In this document: piece after piece, positions 1,974 to 22,155 of the stretch
How the letters are laid out: the number at the start of each line of letters is the position of its first letter
How positions within the stretch are numbered: the stretch's first letter is position 1
Virus genome (UHGV): UHGV-0174150
Source of the DNA: a virus
Reading direction: 5' to 3' (one strand)
DNA length: 26,274 nucleotides
Notes under the pieces: generated by a model
What the model was told of the DNA's origin: nothing
Databases searched by the model: none
The model's input: the letters and a program-made list of their open reading frames with translations, nothing else
Translations under genes and position numbers: made by a program

Positions 1974-3008
1974 TCAAGCATCGCCTAATTTATATTCGTC
2001 AAAACGAATAATTTCGTCATTAAGCCATTCATTTAATTCCATTAATCTTTTTTGAAGTGGAATCAATTCATTACGAACGAATACTCGACTAGCTTTTTCC
2101 ACGTCTCCAAACCCACCAACGTTGCTCGGCATAATTCCCATCATCTGCGGTGGCACGCGGTGCGCTGCCATCATGTCATCGCGGCTAACGTTCTTGATGT
2201 TAAGAAACTCGTCTTTCGCCGCAACCTCTGATAACGGGATGATCTGGATGCCGTCCTTTTTGCCGTTGGGCGAATACATAAACAGGTTGCGGAAGTTACC
2301 CGGTCCTTTGGCGCTTTTCATTGCCTGACGGATATTGTTCACATCCTCCTGGTTCTGTGCTGCGTCGGTCATGTACATAATGAAACCTGCGTGGCTGCCG
2401 TTGATGTAATACTTCCGGCGAAACAGCGTTGCGGACTCGTTGAGCAGGGTTGACGGGATGGCGGAGAGATAGCCTGGCAGCCCGTAAATCTCCTGGTTAA
2501 TATCCGGCTCCAGCAGATGAAAGATGCTGCCCTGCGTAAATTCATAGGGCTGCGTGGTCATGCCATACTGCACAAACCAGTAGGTATCCAGGTCTAATCC
2601 ACGTCGGGTGTATTTTGCCAGGGCAGGCTCAAGGGCGATAACTTCACCGAATCGGTTCGTGCGTTTCTCCAGGTAGGCGTTACCAAATACCAGATAGTCC
2701 TGCACAAAACGCGAAAAAGCCTGCTGGCTGAGCAGCGGATGAGGGATATAGGTACTGGTCAGAATGTTGCACTTTACTGCAATCGGGGAACTGTGATGCA
2801 CGGCGGCGCGGAAGGTGCGCGCCAGTCCGTCAAAGCTGACGGGCGGCTCATACCAACGGTCCATCTGTACGCATTCCACATAGTCCAGCAGTTCACGGCG
2901 GTCCAGAACAGGAACGGGATCGCCGAAGCTGAATGCTTCGGCTGTAGTTTGACTTTTAAGCTGGATCTGTTTCGTCGCCGCAGCTCGGTTCTTCTTACTC
3001 TTTCCCAT
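1974..3008 (-). CDS. Q: portal protein (P2 Q-like)
   Basis: 344-aa ORF whose position and length match P2 gpQ. Start ATG overlaps the P stop (ATGA coupling); the ORF track extends 1 codon further to a TTG. Confidence 0.9.
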   Translation of the reverse strand: MGKSKKNRAAATKQIQLKSQTTAEAFSFGDPVPVLDRRELLDYVECVQMDRWYEPPVSFDGLARTFRAAVHHSSPIAVKCNILTSTYIPHPLLSQQAFSRFVQDYLVFGNAYLEKRTNRFGEVIALEPALAKYTRRGLDLDTYWFVQYGMTTQPYEFTQGSIFHLLEPDINQEIYGLPGYLSAIPSTLLNESATLFRRKYYINGSHAGFIMYMTDAAQNQEDVNNIRQAMKSAKGPGNFRNLFMYSPNGKKDGIQIIPLSEVAAKDEFLNIKNVSRDDMMAAHRVPPQMMGIMPSNVGGFGDVEKASRVFVRNELIPLQKRLMELNEWLNDEIIRFDEYKLGDA

Positions 3009-4774
3009 CAAAAAATCTCCACAATATTGCTGGTATTGGCGGATTCGCCCTGCAGCGGTTCGTTAAACAGTGCGTGCATCGTTGCCCATGCCAGATCGGC
3101 GTGGCTGGCTTCTTCGCTGCGGCTGGCTTCATAGGTCGGGCGGTTGCCACTGGCGGTGGTGGTGCGACGGATTGCCATAAATGACTGCGCAATGTCGGTA
3201 TGTCCGGCGTCAAACTCCAGACGGCGGTGGCTGATAATGTCGTAGGCCTTGAGTACCAGGGCGTTTTTAACGTTGGGGTTGTAGACAAACTCCCGGACGG
3301 CAGGAAAGAACGCTTTCACGTTCTCGTAAACCCCGTGACCAACGCCGGTTGAGTCGATGCCGATGTAGGTCACGTTGTACTGCTCGGTCAGTTTTTTGAT
3401 TGCGTCAGCCTGGGCGCGGAAGTCCATCCCGCGCCACTGGTGACGCTCAAGAATGCGAAACTTACCGCCCGGCACGGCTGGCGGTGCCACCACCACGCAT
3501 CCGGCGCTGTCGCCGTTCTGCGTACCTTTTGCCGGGTCATAACCGATCCACACTTCGCGCCAGCCAAACGGGCGCAGGGCCAGAGCATGAAAGTCGGTCC
3601 AGACTTCCCAGCTGTCCACCATGCACGCCTGCAGCTCGCTGAGCGGGAACACGGACGCGAGATCGTCCACGAACTCGCACATCAGCAGGTTCTGGTATTC
3701 GTCCGGGCTGTACTCCATGCGCAACTGGTCAAGGTCGAACAGGTTACAGCCGCCGCGCACCGCATCTTCCACGGTGACTATCTGGCGGTATTGCCCGTCT
3801 GCGCACAGCAGGCCGGGGGCCAGATTGCTATGGGACAGGTCGATGTCCACCTTGTCGGCTTTGTTGCGTCCACGGTTGAACAGTGCACCGGACCAGAACG
3901 GATAAGCACTGTGGGTCAGGCTGGATGGCGTGGAAAAATAGGTTTGTCGCCATTTTTTGTGAATAGCCATACCGGAAGCCACTTTGCGCAGCTCCTGGAA
4001 TTTCGGTATCCAGAAATATTCATCCAGATACAGGTTGCCGTGGTAACTCTGGGTCGTGCCGCCAATGGTCTCGAGGAAGTATAGAGTGGCCCCCTAGGGA
4101 AGCTACATCGGTGCGCCTTTCAGCTCCACCTCCACTTCTTTGGCGAAGTCGATGATGTACTGTTTAAAGACGTGGGCCTGTGCCTTACTGGCGGAAAGGA
4201 AAATCTGGTTACGTCCGGTAAGCAGGGCGTCAATCAGGGCTTCACGGGCAAAGTAAAAGGTCGCGCCGATCTGGCGTGACTTCAGCAGGTTGCGGATGCG
4301 GTTGGCTTTTCCGGCTTCCCTCCAGTGGCGCTGGTAGTTGAACATGGAGGAATGGAAGATTTCTTCCAGCTTCTCAATCTGCTCATCGGTGAAAACATTC
4401 TTTTCCGGCTGACGGCGCGGGCCTTTGTTGCGGTTGGCGACGTTAGGGTTTAAGTCGGCTTCGTTGCCGCCATTGTTAAACTTGCTGATCCGCGCGTGGC
4501 GCTCCGACTGGCGCGCCAGCAGGTCAATCTCTTTGAAATCTTTCCCTTCTTTGTGCTCCTTCATAATGAGCTGGCAGTAGCGTGCGGCGGTGGTGAGCTG
4601 CATCTGATCCAGCGGCCCATAGTCACCCCACTTGTCGCGTTTTTTCCAGCTGTGAACGGTTGCAACTTTCTCGCCCAGCATTTCAGCAATGCGGGCTACG
4701 CGGTATCCCTGAAAGTACAGCAGCATGGCCTGCCGACGGGGATCGAGATCTGCGGGTGTCAGTGTGGTGTTCAT
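3008..4774 (-). pseudogene. P: terminase large subunit (P2 P-like), single frame interrupted by two in-frame TAG codons at 4103-4105 and 4094-4096
   Basis: ORFs 4103-4774 (N-terminal part) and 3008-3982 (C-terminal part) are in the same frame. Reading through gives ...KGAPM*LP*GATLYFLETIGG... with no other stop; total 589 codons, about P2 gpP size. Neighbouring residues align to P2 P as recalled from memory. Confidence 0.85.
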
Positions 4775-5766: not shown

Positions 5767-6825
5767 ATGAAAAAGAATACCCGCTTTGCTTTTAACGCTT
5801 ACCTGCAGCAACTGGCGCGTCTGAACGGTGTGGCAGTTGAAGAACTGTCCAGCAAATTCACTGTGGAGCCGTCTGTGCAGCAGACGCTGGAAGACCAGAT
5901 CCAGCAGTCCGCCGCTTTCCTGACGCTGATTAACGTCACGCCAGTGACTGAGCAGTCCGGTCAGCTGCTGGGGCTGGGTGTTGGCAGCACCATTGCCGGA
6001 ACCACTGATACCACCGCGAAAGAGCGTGAACCTGTCGATCCGACGCTGATGGTCGATGTGGAATATAAATGCGAGCAGACCAACTTTGACACGGTGCTGA
6101 CCTACGCGAAGCTGGACCTGTGGGCGAAGTTTCAGGATTTCCAGGGGCGGATCCGTGACGCCATCGTGAAACGTCAGGCACTGGACCGCATCATGATCGG
6201 CTTATACGGCCGGACGCTTTCGAAAACCTCCAACCGTAGTGAAAACCCGCTGCTGCAGGATGTGAACAAAGGCTGGCTGCAGAAAATCCGTGAGGATGCA
6301 CCGGATCACGTCATGGGCAGCACCACCACGGGCGGCGAAACCACACCGGGTGCGGTGAAAGTCGGGAAAGGTGGCGAATATGCCAACCTGGACGCTGTGG
6401 TGATGGATGCGGTCAATGAGCTTATCGACGTGGTCTACCAGGACGATGACGATCTGGTGGTGATTTGCGGGCGTGAACTGCTGTCTGACAAGTATTTCCC
6501 GCTGGTCAACAAAGAGCAGGAAAACAGTGAAAAACTGGCTGCCGATATGATCATCAGTCAGAAACGCATGGGTGGCCTGCAGGCGGTGCGTGCGCCGTTC
6601 TTCCCGCCGAATGCGCTGCTGATCACCCGTCTGGATAACCTGTCCATCTACTGGCAGGAAGATACCCGCCGCCGTTCAGTTATCGACAACCCGAAACGTG
6701 ACCGGATTGAAAATTTTGAATCCGTTAACGAAGCCTATGTGGTTGAGGACTATCGCTGCGCTGCACTGGTGGAAAACATCCAGATTGGTGATTTCAGCGC
6801 CGCCGCAGCCGAAACCGGAGCGTAA
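5767..6825 (+). CDS. N: major capsid protein (P2 N-like)
   Basis: 352 aa, immediately after O; size and position match P2 gpN. Confidence 0.9.
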   Translation: MKKNTRFAFNAYLQQLARLNGVAVEELSSKFTVEPSVQQTLEDQIQQSAAFLTLINVTPVTEQSGQLLGLGVGSTIAGTTDTTAKEREPVDPTLMVDVEYKCEQTNFDTVLTYAKLDLWAKFQDFQGRIRDAIVKRQALDRIMIGLYGRTLSKTSNRSENPLLQDVNKGWLQKIREDAPDHVMGSTTTGGETTPGAVKVGKGGEYANLDAVVMDAVNELIDVVYQDDDDLVVICGRELLSDKYFPLVNKEQENSEKLAADMIISQKRMGGLQAVRAPFFPPNALLITRLDNLSIYWQEDTRRRSVIDNPKRDRIENFESVNEAYVVEDYRCAALVENIQIGDFSAAAAETGA

Positions 6826-8955: not shown

Positions 8956-9333
8956 ATGAAAAAGAAATTAATCAGCGGACTGTTTCTGATGTTATGGATG
9001 GCGCTGTTAATCGCAGCAATGGTGTATCCGCAGGGGATCTTTCCGGTACTGGCAGCGTCCGGCGTTTGGGTAGCCTGTTTGCTGACATGGGCGGTAATTC
9101 CGGTAGCACTGGCTGCGTTAATTCAGAATGGCCCGCTCTGGCCCGAGTTCAGGGCATCTTTGCTCAAGACAATTCCCCGAAATCACAACGTATTTATCAG
9201 TTGGCTCCTGCGATTGCTGATTGTTGTAAGTCTCGCATGGACGGGGTGGGCTATTACCCTGGTCTTTTATCTACTGACCGTTATTGCCTTCTGGATCACC
9301 CGTAATCAGATGGCGCAACAGGTAGCAGCATGA
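8956..9333 (+). CDS. lysA: LysA-like lysis-timing membrane protein
   Basis: ATG at 8956 right after the endolysin stop; about 125 aa with multiple TMDs; P2 lysA position. Confidence 0.65.
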   Translation: MKKKLISGLFLMLWMALLIAAMVYPQGIFPVLAASGVWVACLLTWAVIPVALAALIQNGPLWPEFRASLLKTIPRNHNVFISWLLRLLIVVSLAWTGWAITLVFYLLTVIAFWITRNQMAQQVAA

Positions 9334-12622: not shown

Positions 12623-13220
12623 TCTGCTGCCACCGGGTTCAACTTCACTGGAGCGCCGACTGGCGCAAACCTGCAGCGGGATTTCTGATCTGCAGGTGCC
12701 GCTTCGTGACTTGTGGAATCCGGCAACCTGTCCGGTCAGTTTCCTGCCTTATCTCGCCTGGGCGTTCTCTGTGGATCGCTGGGACGAGGGCTGGACAGAA
12801 AGCGTCAAACGCCAGGTAGTGAAGGATGCTTTTTATATTCATCAGCACAAAGGAACCACCAGTGCCGTACGGCGGGTGGTGGAGCCGTTCGGCTTCCTGA
12901 TCCGCATTATTGAGTGGTGGCAGACCGGAGAAACACCGGGCACGTTTCGCCTGGATATCGGCGTGCAGGACCAGGGCATCACTGAAGATACCTATCTGGA
13001 ACTTGAGCGGCTGATAAGCGATGCCAAACCATGTAGCCGTCACATGATCGGCATGTCCATCAATCTGCAGACCAGCGGTCCGCATTGGGTGGGGGCCGCC
13101 AGCTATCTTGGCGAAGAAATCACGATCTATCCGTATATCAACGAAACAATTATTTCCGGCGGCACCGCGCATGAAGGCGGGGCGGTCCATGTTATTGACA
13201 CAATGAGAGTGAATCCATGA
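12615..13220 (+). CDS. I: baseplate protein (P2 I-like)
   Basis: 201 aa; synteny between J and H. Confidence 0.8.
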   Translation: MNSLLPPGSTSLERRLAQTCSGISDLQVPLRDLWNPATCPVSFLPYLAWAFSVDRWDEGWTESVKRQVVKDAFYIHQHKGTTSAVRRVVEPFGFLIRIIEWWQTGETPGTFRLDIGVQDQGITEDTYLELERLISDAKPCSRHMIGMSINLQTSGPHWVGAASYLGEEITIYPYINETIISGGTAHEGGAVHVIDTMRVNP

Positions 13221-15580
13221 GCACAAAATTTTATACCCTGCTGACGGATATTGGCGCGGCGAAACTTGCCAGCGCCGCCGCGATCGGTGTGCCGCTAAAA
13301 ATTACCCATATGGCGGTGGGCGATGGCGGCGGAGCATTGCCGACGCCGGACGCAAAGCAGACGGCACTGGTAAATGAGAAACGCCGGGCTGCGCTGAATA
13401 TGCTCTATATCGACCCGCAGAACAGCAGCCAGATTATTGCTGAACAGGTGATCCCTGAAAATGAGGGTGGTTGGTGGATACGTGAAGTGGGTCTGTTTGA
13501 TGAGTCCGGGGCATTGATTGCCGTGGGCAACTGCCCGGAAAGCTATAAGCCGCAACTGGCTGAAGGCAGCGGGCGTACCCAGACCGTGCGCATGGTGCTG
13601 ATTACCAGCAGCACGGACAATATCACCCTGAAAATCGACCCTGCTGTAGTGCTGGCAACCCGCAAGTATGTGGATGACAAGGCACTGGAGCTGAAGGTGT
13701 ACGTGGATGACCTGATGGCAAAACATCTTGCCGCGCCGGACCCGCATTCACAGTATGCACCCAAAGAAAGTCCAACGTTTACCGGAACCCCCAAAGCGCC
13801 AACGCCAGCGGCGGGGAATAATACCACGCAGCTTGCGACCACCGCGTTTGTACAGGCGGCACTGACGGCCCTTATTAATGGTGCGCCAGCCACGCTGGAC
13901 ACGCTGAAAGAAATAGCCGCAGCCATTAACAATGATCCGAATTTCAGTACCACCATTAACAATGTGCTGGCACTAAAAGCACCGTTGTCGAGTCCGGCAC
14001 TCACCGGAACGCCAACAGCCCCCACGGCGGCACAGTCGGTCAACAATACACAGATTGCCACTACGGCTTTTGTGAAATCGGCGATTGCGGCAATGGTGGG
14101 TTCTGCACCTGCGGCACTGGATACACTGAACGAACTGGCGGCGGCGCTGGGGAATGACCCGAACTTTGCCACGACAATGCTTAATGCACTGGCAGGTAAA
14201 CAACCGCTGGACAATACGCTGACTAATTTGAGTGGAAAGGATGTAGCTGGTCTTCTCGCATACCTTGGTATTTCAGCGCCAGGCGGCGCAGGGTCAGTTG
14301 GATATAAATTAAATGCAGAGAATACAGTCTCACGAACTGCATACGATAATTTTTCTGACCGAATTAATGCCGGAGACTTTGGTATTAAGGGTGATGGGAT
14401 AGCTGATAATGCTGCTGCGATAACCAAGGCATGTGCTGCATTGCAGAAACTGTACGAAATTGATGGAATCCGTCGCACATTGGTATTTACAGATGGGTCA
14501 TATCGCACATCGGCCACAATTGTTGTTCATGCAAATATGCTTATTCATTGCGAGGGGGGGGTTGTATTCCAGAATATCGGGGCAGTAAAAACCTTTGCAG
14601 CGGTGGAGCTTCAGGGCGGATCCAAGAAAAGCGTACTCGGCACTATGGACGGGTACGGTAGCGCCATCCTCATCAGGGGTAGCACTCATACTGTCGAATT
14701 TCAGACAATCAGTAACTGCGTAGATGGGGTGATTTTCAGGGCTGACAACAACTGGGCATCCACGAAAAGCAGCCTGGATAATGTGGTTCGTGGTGTTCAA
14801 ATTGGCAAATGTACTAACGCTATCGTGTTTGAGCAGAACGCTAATAATCTTGTGCAACAGGGCAATGAAGTTCGTGTCAACTTTGTGTCTGAAACCCCTA
14901 ACACACTGCTTTTCAGAAACTTCGATGGATTTGTCCACACAGAGGAATCTAACTGGGATAGTAACTTCGTAGAGCTGATAGCGAGTGACCCAATAACGCT
15001 GCCAGATTCATCTATGGCTAGGAACTCTACCCCCCATAGCGTATCAAACCTGACAATGGCGGTTAAATCATGGTGCGGAGGTTGGGTGCCCGATGCAGGC
15101 TCCATGTGCCTGATTAGAGGTGCGTTCAGTACCAGTACGTTCGAGTTCAATCTGGCCCAACGAGTAGGCTTAAACGAGGTTGTGGATGCCGTCGGCGTTA
15201 ATTCATTTGGTTCGTGTATTTTACGAAATACTCGTTATGAGAATTTAGGTAATTCAATATCTTATATCGGCGTTACTACTGGCGCTGAGTTCAATAGTGG
15301 TTTAGCCCTTTTCCGTAGTAAGTTCCGAGTCAGATTTACCGTGGTACCTCTGGCCGCAGGCCAAACGTACGGACTGTCTTTTAAGCATGTGCTGAGCCAG
15401 CGCTCAAATACAGGCAGGATGCGGATCGTACAATACTCGGATACAGCCAGGGGCAAGCTCTTGATTGAGGTTCGTGATGCGGGTACTGAGACGCAGGGCC
15501 TGGTGCGGGTGTGGTTCACAAATTTAACTCAGACAACTACGTCCACAATGGACGTAGAAATTATTTTTGAAGCTGAATAA
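13217..15580 (+). CDS. H: tail fibre / tailspike, mosaic: P2 H-like N-terminal half joined to an AT-rich C-terminal module with a pectate-lyase-superfamily-like motif
   Basis: N-terminal roughly 335 aa match P2 gpH including the NSPALTGTP...NDPNFATTM...AGKQP repeat region. After about nt 14220 composition turns AT-rich and the protein carries DFGIKGDGIADNAAAI, like the start of beta-helix depolymerase tailspikes. Confidence 0.85.
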   Translation: MSTKFYTLLTDIGAAKLASAAAIGVPLKITHMAVGDGGGALPTPDAKQTALVNEKRRAALNMLYIDPQNSSQIIAEQVIPENEGGWWIREVGLFDESGALIAVGNCPESYKPQLAEGSGRTQTVRMVLITSSTDNITLKIDPAVVLATRKYVDDKALELKVYVDDLMAKHLAAPDPHSQYAPKESPTFTGTPKAPTPAAGNNTTQLATTAFVQAALTALINGAPATLDTLKEIAAAINNDPNFSTTINNVLALKAPLSSPALTGTPTAPTAAQSVNNTQIATTAFVKSAIAAMVGSAPAALDTLNELAAALGNDPNFATTMLNALAGKQPLDNTLTNLSGKDVAGLLAYLGISAPGGAGSVGYKLNAENTVSRTAYDNFSDRINAGDFGIKGDGIADNAAAITKACAALQKLYEIDGIRRTLVFTDGSYRTSATIVVHANMLIHCEGGVVFQNIGAVKTFAAVELQGGSKKSVLGTMDGYGSAILIRGSTHTVEFQTISNCVDGVIFRADNNWASTKSSLDNVVRGVQIGKCTNAIVFEQNANNLVQQGNEVRVNFVSETPNTLLFRNFDGFVHTEESNWDSNFVELIASDPITLPDSSMARNSTPHSVSNLTMAVKSWCGGWVPDAGSMCLIRGAFSTSTFEFNLAQRVGLNEVVDAVGVNSFGSCILRNTRYENLGNSISYIGVTTGAEFNSGLALFRSKFRVRFTVVPLAAGQTYGLSFKHVLSQRSNTGRMRIVQYSDTARGKLLIEVRDAGTETQGLVRVWFTNLTQTTTSTMDVEIIFEAE
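13769..14215 (+). repeat. two tandem ~74-codon tail-fibre repeat units inside H
   Basis: SPTFTGTPKAPT...NDPNFSTTINNVLALKAPL directly followed by SPALTGTPTAPT...NDPNFATTMLNALAGKQPL; unit boundaries approximate. Confidence 0.55.
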
Positions 15581-16247: not shown

Positions 16248-16820
16248 ATGATCATGCTTATTGGATATGTACGCGTGTCAACAAATGACCAGAACACCGA
16301 TTTGCAACGCAATGCGCTGAACTGCGCGGGATGTGAGCGGATTTTTGAGGATAAAATCAGTGGCACTAAGTCCGACAGACCGGGGCTGAAAAAACTGCTC
16401 AGGACACTATCGGCAGGAGACACGCTGGTTGTCTGGAAGCTGGACAGGTTGGGGCGCAGTATGCGGCATCTTGTTACGCTGATAGAGGAGTTGCGCCAGC
16501 GTGGTGTGAATTTCCGAAGCCTGACTGACAGTATTGATACCAGTACCCCAATGGGCCGTTTCTTTTTTCATGTCATGGGTGCCCTGGCTGAAATGGAACG
16601 CGAACTGATAGTTGAACGTACCAGGGCAGGGCTGGCTGCAGCTCGTGCCAAAGGCAGAGTAGGTGGACGCCGTCCTAAGTTGACCACCGAACAGTGGGCA
16701 CAGATTGGGCGTTTACTCGAGGCCGGAGAATCAAGACAGCGTATTGCACTGATTTTTGATGTGGGTGTTTCCACAATTTATAGAAAATTTCCGGCAAATA
16801 AGAGTAATGAATCCCCCTGA
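16248..16820 (+). CDS. serine recombinase, Hin/Gin/Pin/Cin-family DNA invertase
   Basis: N-terminal LIGYVRVSTNDQ..DLQ catalytic motif, VVWKLDRLGRS, MGRFFFHVMGALAEMERELIVERT, and C-terminal HTH (GVSTIYRKF). Probable true start is the ATG at 16254 (MLIGY). Confidence 0.9.
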   Translation: MIMLIGYVRVSTNDQNTDLQRNALNCAGCERIFEDKISGTKSDRPGLKKLLRTLSAGDTLVVWKLDRLGRSMRHLVTLIEELRQRGVNFRSLTDSIDTSTPMGRFFFHVMGALAEMERELIVERTRAGLAAARAKGRVGGRRPKLTTEQWAQIGRLLEAGESRQRIALIFDVGVSTIYRKFPANKSNESP

Positions 16821-19017: not shown

Positions 19018-19151
19018 CGGTTGACGATCTGGTGGCAGATATCGCCACCATTTTTCACTGGCCGCCATCCGTTACTGACGTTATGCCGCTGACCGAAGTG
19101 CTGGAATGGCGGTATAAAGCGATTCAGAGAAGCGGGGCCAACGATGAGTGA
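18715..19151 (+). CDS. E+E': E+E' fusion produced by programmed -1 frameshift at TTTTTTG (18972-18978)
   Basis: The -1 frame after the slippery site is open to TGA at 19149-19151, encoding ...VDDLVADIATIFHWPPS...SGANDE and overlapping the T start. Same arrangement as P2 E/E' and lambda G/GT. Confidence 0.6.
18972..18978 (+). other. slippery heptanucleotide T_TTT_TTG, -1 ribosomal frameshift site for E+E'
   Basis: Read directly in the E frame as ACT TTT TTG. Confidence 0.6.
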
Positions 19152-22100
19152 TAACAACCTGCGTCTGCAGGTCATTCTTAATGCGGTTGACAAGCTCACC
19201 CGCCCATTTCGATCTGCGCAGGCCAGTTCAAGAGAACTGGCTGCTGCTGTCAAAAAATCCCGCGATGCAATAAAGCAGCTTGATCAGGCCGGGAGCAGTC
19301 TGGACAGCTTCCGAAAGCTGCAGGCAGAAAATCAGAAATTAGGCGACAGGCTGAACTATGCCCGCCAGCGTGCAAATTTGCTCAGTCAGGAACTGGGAGC
19401 GATGGGGCCGCCTTCGCAACGTCAGGTTGTTGCTCTGGGCCGTCAACGGCTGGCTGTTCAGCGCCTGGAAGAACGCCAGAAAAAGCTGCAGCAGCAGACG
19501 GCGCTTGTGCGTGCTGAACTGTACCGGGCGGGAATTTCTGCGAAAGACGATGCGGGAGCAACTGCCCGTTTAGCCCGTGAAACATCACGTTATAACCAGG
19601 AACTTTCGAAACAGGAGGCGCGGCTGAAGCGACTGGGGGAAGCTCAGCGCAGGATGAATGCAGCGCGTGTCAGTTATGCCCGTTCGCTGGAGGTGCGTGA
19701 TCGTATTGCAGGTGCCGGAGCCACCACCACGGCTGCAGGGCTGGCAATGGGCGCACCAGTGATGGCGGCAGTAAAAAGCTATACCAGCATGGAAGATGCC
19801 ATGAAAGGTGTGGCAAAGCAGGTCAATGGTCTGCGTGACGATAATGGCAACCGCACTGCACGTTTTTATGAAATGCAGGATGCCATCAAGGCTGCCAGCG
19901 AACAGTTGCCGATGGAAAACGGTGCGGTGGATTTCGCTGCACTGGTTGAAGGTGGTGCGCGCATGAACGTCGCAAACCCTGACGACAGTTGGGAAGATCA
20001 GAAACGTGACCTGCTGGCCTTCGCCAGTACGGCAGCAAAGGCGGCAACAGCCTTTGAGCTGCCAGCGGATGAACTGTCAGAAAGTCTGGGGAAAATCGCC
20101 CAGCTCTACAAAATCCCCACCCGCAATATTGAACAGCTCGGTGATGCGCTGAACTATCTGGATGATAACGCCATGTCGAAAGGGGCAGACATCATTGATG
20201 TGATGCAACGTCTGGGCGGTGTGGCTGACCGTCTGGATTATCGTAAAGCGGCGGCGCTGGGTTCCACCTTCCTGACACTGGGCGCTGCGCCAGAGGTTGC
20301 AGCCAGTGCAGCAAACGCGATGGTGCGTGAATTGTCCATTGCCACCATGCAAAGCAAAAGTTTCTTTGAAGGGATGAATCTGCTGAAACTCAATCCTGAA
20401 GTGATTGAAAAGCAGATGACGAAGGATGCGATGGGAACCATCCAGCGCGTGCTGGAGAAGGTAAACGCGCTGCCGCAGGACAAGCGCCTGTCTGCCATGA
20501 CTATGTTGTTTGGTAAAGAGTTTGGCGATGACGCGGCGAAACTGGCAAACAACCTGCCGGAACTGCAGCGTCAGTTAAAACTGACAGCGGGCAATGATGC
20601 GCTCGGCTCCATGCAGAAAGAATCCGACATTAACAAGGATTCACTTTCTGCGCAGTGGTTGCTGGTCAAAACCGGAGCGCAGAACACCTTCAGCAGCCTG
20701 GGCGAAACGCTGCGCCAGCCGCTGATGGATATTCTGTACACGGTGAAAAGCGTCACGGGGGCGTTGCGTCGCTGGGTGGAAGCTAACCCGGAACTGACAG
20801 GCACACTGATGAAAGCATCGGCTGTTGTGGCTGCGGTTACCGTCGGCCTCGGCACCTTAGCGGTGGCGCTGGCTGCAGTGCTGGGGCCGCTGGCAGTGAT
20901 CCGTCTGGGATTCTCTGTGTTGGGTATCAAAACGTTATCTTCCGTTACGGCAGCAGTAACTCGAACCAGCAGCGCGTTGTCCTGGCTGGCTGGCGCGCCA
21001 CTGGCACTGCTGCGACGCGGGCTTGCTTCATCGGGCAACGCCGCAGGTTTACTTACTGCGCCGTTGTCGTCATAGCGCCGCACGGCATCACTCACGGGAA
21101 ATGTCCTGAAAACTCTAGCAGGAGCGCCGGTTGCACTTTTGCGGTCTGGATTATCCGGTTTACGTGCTGTTGCTGTGATGTTTATGAATCCTCTGGCGAT
21201 GCTGCGCGTTGCCCTGTATGCCATATCTGGTCTGTTAGGTGCTCTGCTCAGTCCGATAGGTCTTGTGGTTACTGCACTGGCGGGCGTGGCGCTGGTTGTC
21301 TGGAAATACTGGCAACCCATCACCGCATTTCTCGGTGGCGTGGTGGAAGGATTCAAAGCGGCGGCAGGTCCCATCAGTGCAGCGTTCGAACCGCTTAAGC
21401 CCGTGTTCCAGTGGATTGGCGACAAAGTGCAGGCGCTGTGGGGCTGGTTTACTGATCTGCTGACGCCCGTTAAGTCGACCTCTGCCGAACTGCAGAGCGC
21501 AGCGGCCATGGGGCGACGATTCGGGGAGGCACTGGCAGAAGGGCTGAATATGGTCATGCATCCGCTGGACTCCCTGAAATCCGGCGTTTCCTGGTTGCTG
21601 GAGAAACTCGGCATTGTCAGTAAAGAGGCTGCAAAGGCGAAACTGCCGGAAAGCGTGACGCGTCAGCAACCTGCGACGGTGAATGCAGACGGTAAAGTGA
21701 TGATGCCATCGGGTGGTTTTCCGTCATGGGGATATGGCTTTGCGGGGATGTATGACAGCGGCGGCTATATCCCGCGCGGGCAGTTCGGCATTGTCGGTGA
21801 AAACGGGCCGGAAATTGTCAACGGTCCGGCAAACGTGACCAGCCGGAGAAATACCGCTGCACTGGCTGCGGTTGTCGCCGGAATGATGGGAGTTGCTGCC
21901 GCGCCAGCAGAGCTTCCACCGTTGCATCCTTTGGCGCTTCCCGCGAAAGGCGGTGAAGCGATGGTGAGTCGCGTAGCTGCTGTGCCGCCCGTTCACCGGA
22001 TTGAGGCACCGACGCAGATCATCATCCAGACGCAGCCAGGACAAAGTGCGCAGGATATTGCGCGGGAGGTGGCACGCCAGCTTGATGAACGTGAACGCAG

Positions 22101-22155
22101 GCTGAAGGCAAAAGCCAGGAGTAACTACAGCGATCAGGGGGGATACGACGCATGA
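19144..22155 (+). pseudogene. T: tail tape-measure protein (P2 T-like), single frame interrupted by one in-frame TAG at 21073-21075
   Basis: ORFs 19144-21075 and 21139-22155 are in the same frame; the 63 nt between them are open, so the only interruption is the TAG. Read-through gives ...LLTAPLSS*RRTASLTGNVLKTLAGAPVALL..., continuous Ala/Leu-rich tape-measure sequence. Confidence 0.85.

Follow-up and report, generated by a model that had tools for sequence, protein, structure and literature searches.

Does the amber codon that interrupts the tail tape-measure gene of this P2-like prophage belong to the phage, or did it arise when its DNA was sequenced and assembled? The gene, T, lies on the forward strand at positions 19144-22155 of the window, by which we mean the whole stretch of 26,274 nt analysed here. 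Taken at face value, the stop would point to a tape measure dependent on suppression or read-through, or else to a freshly killed prophage. Phages with an amber codon in an essential tail gene, such as the amber mutants of P2 and lambda, are viable only in a suppressor host. We argue for a more prosaic answer. The metagenome contig is thinly covered and has four short patches that look like error; because the codon falls within one of them, the TAG at 21073-21075 is probably an artefact and not biology: read errors that were fixed into a low-coverage assembly and are absent from the phage DNA.

A tape-measure gene of the P2 type

The window holds the late operon of a P2-like prophage adjoining the E. 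coli chromosomal gene ybjL, and judging from this flank the host is E. coli, which uses the standard genetic code. The operon comprises genes for portal, terminase, scaffold, capsid, lysis, baseplate, tail fibre, sheath and tube, followed by E/E', T, U, D and ogr. Here, as in annotated relatives, T is placed between the E/E' tail-assembly chaperone genes and those of gpU and gpD. The T region is 98.4% identical in nucleotide sequence to Escherichia phage 500465-1 (Peduoviridae, Wadgaonvirus), with a set of Klebsiella phages following at 94%, and we describe the prophage as Wadgaonvirus-like within the Peduoviridae. The same order of sheath, tube, E/E' chaperone, T, U and D accompanies the P2 gpT-type genes represented by gp40 of phage 500465-1 and by E. 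coli WP_089606945.1, the latter also matching the 3012-nt length of T in the window. The deposited sequence differs from these relatives in carrying TAG in place of Leu644, together with the replacement V658L.

The upstream ORF (19144-21075) opens with ATG and encodes 643 aa up to the TAG at 21073-21075; the downstream ORF (21139-22155) opens with TTG in the identical frame, and the 63 nt between them (21076-21138) contain no stop codon. Both ORF coordinates and translation bear out the preliminary description, which had placed the two T ORFs in one frame, parted by that codon and joined by an open 63-nt stretch. Read as one frame, 19144-22155 amounts to 1003 sense codons and one internal stop, in agreement with the read-through product of about 1000 aa, longer than the 815-aa P2 T, that had been proposed.

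The N-terminal part of the protein is recognized by the tape-measure models TIGR01760 tape_meas_TP901 (E=4e-93, 312 bits against a cut-off of 28.8) and PF10145 (E=8e-19, 68.8 bits against a cut-off of 33.2), both over residues 200-567. In an alignment with P2 gpT, two segments of the 1003-aa protein match, residues 4-178 and 693-845, one on either side of the stop, and the conserved part downstream of the stop shows homology to P2 T residues 586-736. The 188 aa by which the protein exceeds its P2 counterpart belong to a repeat-rich hydrophobic middle region that P2 does not have. Tape measures of Burkholderia P2-like phages range from 842 to 1075 aa, their length tracking that of the tail (PMC3091744). 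Given these documented lengths and the presence of T as a single gene in relatives, there is nothing unusual in a product of about 1000 aa. Length also varies naturally within T through a 66-nt (22-aa) repeat unit at 21190-21200 on the forward strand: among the fetched loci 55 carry an additional 66 nt and one carries 132 nt, while the short form of the window is shared by E. coli MFDS1016424 only.

All relatives examined possess T as one uninterrupted gene of 1003, 1025 or 1047 aa, and the 90%-identity protein cluster to which it belongs, named "phage tail tape measure protein", has 9661 members that are typically 1025 aa long. This contig, with its TAG at codon 644, is the exception to the single ORF that every relative of the P2 gpT type retains. 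That two separate genes might be normal at this locus, a possibility left open at the outset, is ruled out by the annotations and alignments of relatives, and the stop is therefore taken to be an error or a lesion rather than an alternative gene organization. The underlying gene is most likely an ordinary P2-type tape measure, intact and 1003 aa long if the stop is an artefact.

Private substitutions around the amber codon

An intact T allele of 3012 nt, the same length as the gene in the window, is available from E. coli MFDS1016424 (NZ_CP106924.1). Comparison with MFDS1016424 reveals 45 differences, all of them substitutions, so that the absence of any frameshift or deletion, as first reported, holds. 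Of these, 40 resemble the usual differences between alleles and are for the most part third-position transitions. The remaining five fall within 52 nt (21072-21123, forward strand) and are private to the contig: T>A at 21072 (Ser, silent), T>A at 21074 (Leu644 TTG>TAG), G>C at 21093 (silent), G>C at 21115 (V658L) and T>A at 21123 (silent). Three of the five are thus synonymous, and each one swaps a base for its complement, A/T or G/C. Outside this patch, positions 20700-21500 hold a single difference from the best relative. The alignment with related tape measures that had been suggested as a way to find the replaced residue identifies it as Leu644: all 15 sequences with a residue in the amber column have leucine (P2 T has a gap across the region), and on both sides of the stop the flanking residues agree with the relatives residue for residue.

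How widespread is this allele? With a 141-nt query centred on the patch, the best identity is 96.5%, or five mismatches, both among 917 E. coli records and among the phage records, of which there are 32; the best matches thus differ from the window at all five sites, and not one of the variants occurs in any of them. A search with the 26-mer that covers variants one and two gave no match in IMG/VR, the metagenome contig collection or the GTDB species representatives. When the two variant sites are relaxed to W, the same 26-mer retrieves 56 metagenome contigs, which are all wild type at the five sites (TTGGT vs AACCA in the window); the wild-type T at the amber position is present in 56 of 56 and likewise in loci L005 and L006. 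The other three variants, each queried in its local context, are absent from IMG/VR, where three 17-mer matches proved unrelated. An exact look-up of the 643-aa product returns ENA ERZ1304577 NODE_2056 as its sole source, and among about 15 billion proteins this product, the 325-aa C-terminal fragment and a 223-aa terminase fragment (see below) are each encoded by exactly one contig. An inherited pseudogene would be expected to show the same lesion in more than one genome of its lineage; this lesion is found in one contig only.

Alternatively, a second P2-like phage in the sample, with a divergent and as yet unsampled T allele, might have contributed the patch as a short tract, through gene conversion or chimeric assembly. 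P2-like prophages are mosaic, metagenome assembly graphs can switch between strains, and four of the five changes in T are silent or conservative. However, a functional donor would carry no stop, nor the stops and radical changes that we describe below for terminase and capsid; none of the variants is found in its T context in IMG/VR, and they are absent from Klebsiella, Salmonella and Escherichia phage alleles at 91-96% identity. Natural divergence is moreover rich in transitions, as opposed to none in the T patch. We regard such a tract as highly improbable.

Could the amber codon be functional? Read-through by a suppressor tRNA, by reassignment of the codon or by a leaky context would yield the 1003-aa product and might perhaps serve late-gene regulation. 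The frame is open on either side of the stop, conservation extends over the part downstream, and in E. coli an amber codon with C as the next base terminates relatively weakly. Each of the three in-frame stops of the contig is a TAG in a late gene, which resembles programmed read-through or stop reassignment in phages. The resemblance ends there. No relative conserves the stop, leucine being found in all of them; ARAGORN detects no tRNA gene, and hence no suppressor tRNA, in the 26-kb contig; and the E. coli host uses the standard code. Folding of the RNA 3' of the stop predicts a structure that does not exceed chance in stability (minimum free energy -27.5 vs a shuffle mean of -28.7 kcal/mol, z = +0.38), so a stimulatory element is lacking, and the wild-type sequence folds at -32.9 kcal/mol, that is, the T-patch substitutions weaken the structure. 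In their patches the stops also accompany radical missense changes, for which recoding would offer no explanation. A full-text search brought up no earlier case of read-through in tape-measure genes, and no recoding apart from the E/E' chaperone frameshift. A functional amber codon is accordingly extremely improbable. Were the TAG nevertheless real, it would leave a 643-aa fragment without the conserved C-terminal third, with which tail assembly should fail.

Sister patches in other late genes

Comparison of the whole window with three related prophages located three further patches of the same kind. The first lies in the terminase ATPase gene (gpP; 3008-4774, reverse strand), where 14 private substitutions without an indel are concentrated at 4054-4113. 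They convert GDPMVLPNGATLYFLGTNARTAQ to GAPM*LP*GATLYFLETIGGTTQ, both stops being TAG: one at codon 224 (4103-4105, GTG>TAG) and one at codon 227 (4094-4096, AAC>TAG), with two changes in each codon. The best identity of a 141-nt query here is 90.8% (13 mismatches) over 1148 E. coli records. The second patch comprises seven substitutions at 6204-6220 in the major capsid gene (5767-6825, forward strand) and causes six radical replacements, F146L, N147Y, V149R, K150T, R151L and A152S; among 975 E. coli records none matches its 141 nt at better than 94.3%. The third, at 9143-9208 in a lysA-like gene (8956-9333, forward strand), has 11 substitutions, ten of which are to C (G on the opposite strand), and matches at most 92.2% over 141 nt among 276 E. 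coli records. In terminase and capsid, the substitutions alter residues and bases that are invariant in about 1000 genomes.

The four patches are dense, 17-66 nt each, and consist of substitutions only. Other concentrations of private variants, in the portal, tail fibre, sheath and D genes, are made up of third-position transitions and represent ordinary divergence. Relative to the three related prophages, the prophage outside the four patches looks fully intact, with purifying selection and third-position, transition-rich variation. If the patches were real, the terminase would be dead and packaging prevented, so that no particle could form and the element would be defective whatever the state of T.

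Spectrum of the patch substitutions

The 32 substitutions of the four patches divide into two transitions, 20 complement transversions and ten other transversions, with no indels. The natural singletons of 58 related sequences across the sheath-to-D region comprise 374 transitions (62%), 90 complement transversions and 136 other transversions, along with 31 indels. Compared with this background, the patches are deficient in transitions (Fisher p = 1e-10) and enriched in complement transversions (p = 5e-9), and the probability of drawing five complement transversions out of five, as in the T patch, is about 8e-5. Among the patch substitutions, first, second and third codon positions are represented 11:10:11, whereas natural variant clusters are almost all third-position transitions. 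Together with the three stops and the radical replacements at invariant residues, this spread indicates that the private variants are blind to coding constraint, as would be expected of an artefact. Nor do the patches follow the pattern of neutral decay, which is scattered, transition-rich and accompanied by indels.

What kind of process could generate such a spectrum? The spectrum agrees with the error signature published for Illumina two-colour chemistry. In that chemistry, A is read as red plus green, C as red, T as green and G as dark, and NextSeq runs contain very few A/G and C/T errors owing to this colour code (AfterQC, PMC5374548). Under the code each transversion amounts to a flip of one channel and each transition to a flip of both. 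By this measure 30 of the 32 substitutions in the patches need a flip of one channel only, and all five changes of the T patch are the identical red-channel flip in one direction. If its reads came from the opposite strand, the lysA-like patch would mostly reflect signal loss towards G. The likeness to NextSeq- or NovaSeq-type errors extends to the scarcity of A/G and C/T changes, the lack of indels, the low coverage, the singleton status and the dominance in one patch of calls to G on one strand. It is incomplete in one respect, as complement transversions, i.e. red-channel flips, are in greater excess than the generic profile requires.

A few small transversion-only clusters are also present among the 56 other metagenome contigs (L016, L055 and L039), although they are too few, and the coverage data too sparse, to link them with coverage.

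Origin of the patches

The window corresponds in full to a metagenome contig assembled by SPAdes, ENA ERZ1304577 NODE_2056_length_26274_cov_5.301118, with a k-mer coverage of 5.3; a literature look-up found no paper mentioning ERZ1304577. At 5.3x a Poisson model places about 3% of k-mers at a coverage of one or less. Given a virtually transition-free and indel-free spectrum combined with low coverage, miscalled bridging reads provide the simplest account. A few positions of the assembly graph would have been bridged solely by reads with runs of miscalls, and the de Bruijn-graph assembler would have kept the miscalled path where no better-supported alternative existed. The miscalls themselves may be Illumina two-colour errors, as the fit of the spectrum suggests.

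Several observations sit uneasily with this account. Mean base coverage, perhaps 8-12x, is not so low that four bridges made up of errors alone would be expected in 26 kb unless by some bad luck or through poor read tails. That each of the three stops is TAG, and that two of the codons had to change twice to become one, is mildly odd for random errors. The T patch alone, with three of five changes synonymous and V>L conservative, could pass as natural variation. The contig record furthermore lists "samples_with_this_contig 2", whereas the protein look-up counts one contig. The two samples are probably the same assembly recorded twice; if two independent sequencing runs did stand behind the contig, the error explanation could not hold.

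Could the patches instead be real lesions of a recently damaged, defective prophage, in which a localized multi-site mutational process hit T, terminase, capsid and the lysA-like gene and left T a pseudogene? The stops stand in the public record, T pseudogenes do occur, fragments of the T protein being encoded in other genomes, and the joint damage to several late genes is what one expects once selection is gone. The situation also resembles amber mutants and the nonsense pseudogenes of decaying prophages, in that a single nonsense codon interrupts an otherwise complete essential late gene. Yet nonsense alleles, whether from the laboratory or from nature, are single changes, usually transitions, and are inherited within a lineage, while the codon here has been seen once and is accompanied by four transversions close by and by three sister patches. 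Decay is normally scattered and transition-rich, with indels or deletions, and here everything outside the four patches is intact. Spontaneous G>C and T>A mutations are rare in E. coli. The window has no repeat, inverted or direct, from which the changes could have been copied; none of the collections searched contains the haplotype a second time, and the coverage of the contig is low. Real damage would call for a process, so far unknown, that leaves dense patches of transversions alone in an otherwise undecayed prophage, and we consider it unlikely, if still worth bearing in mind.

A variant of this idea holds that the patches are the genuine output of an undescribed localized process that rewrites stretches of some 20-60 nt in prophage late genes by transversions alone, mostly A/T and G/C swaps, and thereby creates amber codons in T and the terminase gene; it could be, for example, a mechanism by which the host or a rival element disables a resident prophage without deletion. 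We judge this very improbable.

Known mutational mechanisms were considered as well. Templated mutation, through a quasi-palindrome with template switching or through conversion by an internal repeat, was rejected: no variant-containing k-mer longer than 8-10 nt recurs elsewhere on either strand, and there is no relevant repeat. Inspection of the alignment likewise dismissed a small inversion, the ancestral 52-mer not being palindromic and the variant positions being asymmetric. Adenine mutagenesis of the kind produced by diversity-generating retroelements (DGR) does not apply, as the ancestral bases are T and G and the sites are invariant in relatives.

We return to sequencing error, the reading favoured by the conjunction of a singleton allele, a transversion-only patch, low coverage and three sister patches. 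The preliminary description of a tape-measure gene interrupted by an amber codon is accurate for the deposited sequence; the biological interest it implied, be it read-through or a meaningful pseudogene, is not sustained, the evidence favouring an error. The five clustered substitutions, the three further patches and the 5.3x metagenome coverage had not been covered there.

Implications

On the artefact reading, one 26-kb contig contains three false stops in two essential genes. Low-coverage metagenome contigs can, then, hold short, dense, transition-free patches that create false pseudogenes. Such cases may be flagged even where reads are not consulted, by the singleton status of the allele, by the ratio of transitions to transversions and by the spread of private variants over codon positions.

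Variable regions of the prophage

The tape-measure gene T varies in length among the compared loci by whole repeat units of 66 nt (22 aa) each, at a site near positions 21190-21200 of the window. One extra unit relative to the window is present in 55 fetched loci (1025 aa), and two in the fetched locus L062, whose product would be 1047 aa; among the fetched loci, the short 1003-aa form is shared only by the window contig and Escherichia coli MFDS1016424. We regard this variation as natural tail-length polymorphism or, in the window contig, possibly as the outcome of a collapsed repeat.

The tail-fibre gene H (13217-15580) encodes a product of 787 aa, with an N-terminus of the usual P2 collar type and a different C-terminal part, for which the pectate-lyase-like match is weak and below threshold. 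No counterpart of segment 14270-16177 was found in three close relatives, which carry in its place invertible tail-fibre and assembly cassettes adjoining the recombinase gene (16254-16820). Cargo genes at 308-1936, upstream of the portal gene, specify products of 256 aa, containing a helix-turn-helix, and 282 aa, for which Pfam gave no match. These genes are also present in E. coli JML285; the equivalent position in MFDS1016424 is occupied by a reverse-transcriptase gene.

Clustered private substitutions

Dense patches of substitutions found in no relative affect several conserved genes. Within the capsid gene (5767-6825), seven such substitutions in 17 nt (6204-6220) alter six consecutive residues that are invariant elsewhere, replacing FN-VKRA by LY-RTLS. 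A further capsid change, V127G (6146), is located a short way upstream of this patch. The patch at 9143-9208 in the lysA-like gene (8956-9333) comprises 11 private substitutions, of which 10 introduce C (equivalent to G on the opposite strand), and resembles signal-dropout calls in two-colour Illumina chemistry. In a few other metagenome-assembled contigs (L016, L055 and L039), the sheath and T genes likewise contain small clusters of singleton variants consisting of transversions only (3-4 changes within 30-40 nt), which suggests that such patches are a recurrent assembly artefact.

The terminase ATPase gene (gpP; 3008-4774, minus strand) is broken by in-frame TAG stops in place of codons 224 and 227, both of which lie inside a 60-nt patch (4054-4113) with 14 private substitutions and no indels, through which the frame is unchanged. 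All three in-frame stops of the contig (4094-4096, 4103-4105 and 21073-21075) are TAG, and two of them required two substitutions within one codon. This uniformity is probably due to chance, because the substitution spectrum is complement-rich, with an excess of A/T and G/C swaps. In the output of a gene caller, this terminase would appear as two separate pieces, 223 and 324 aa long.
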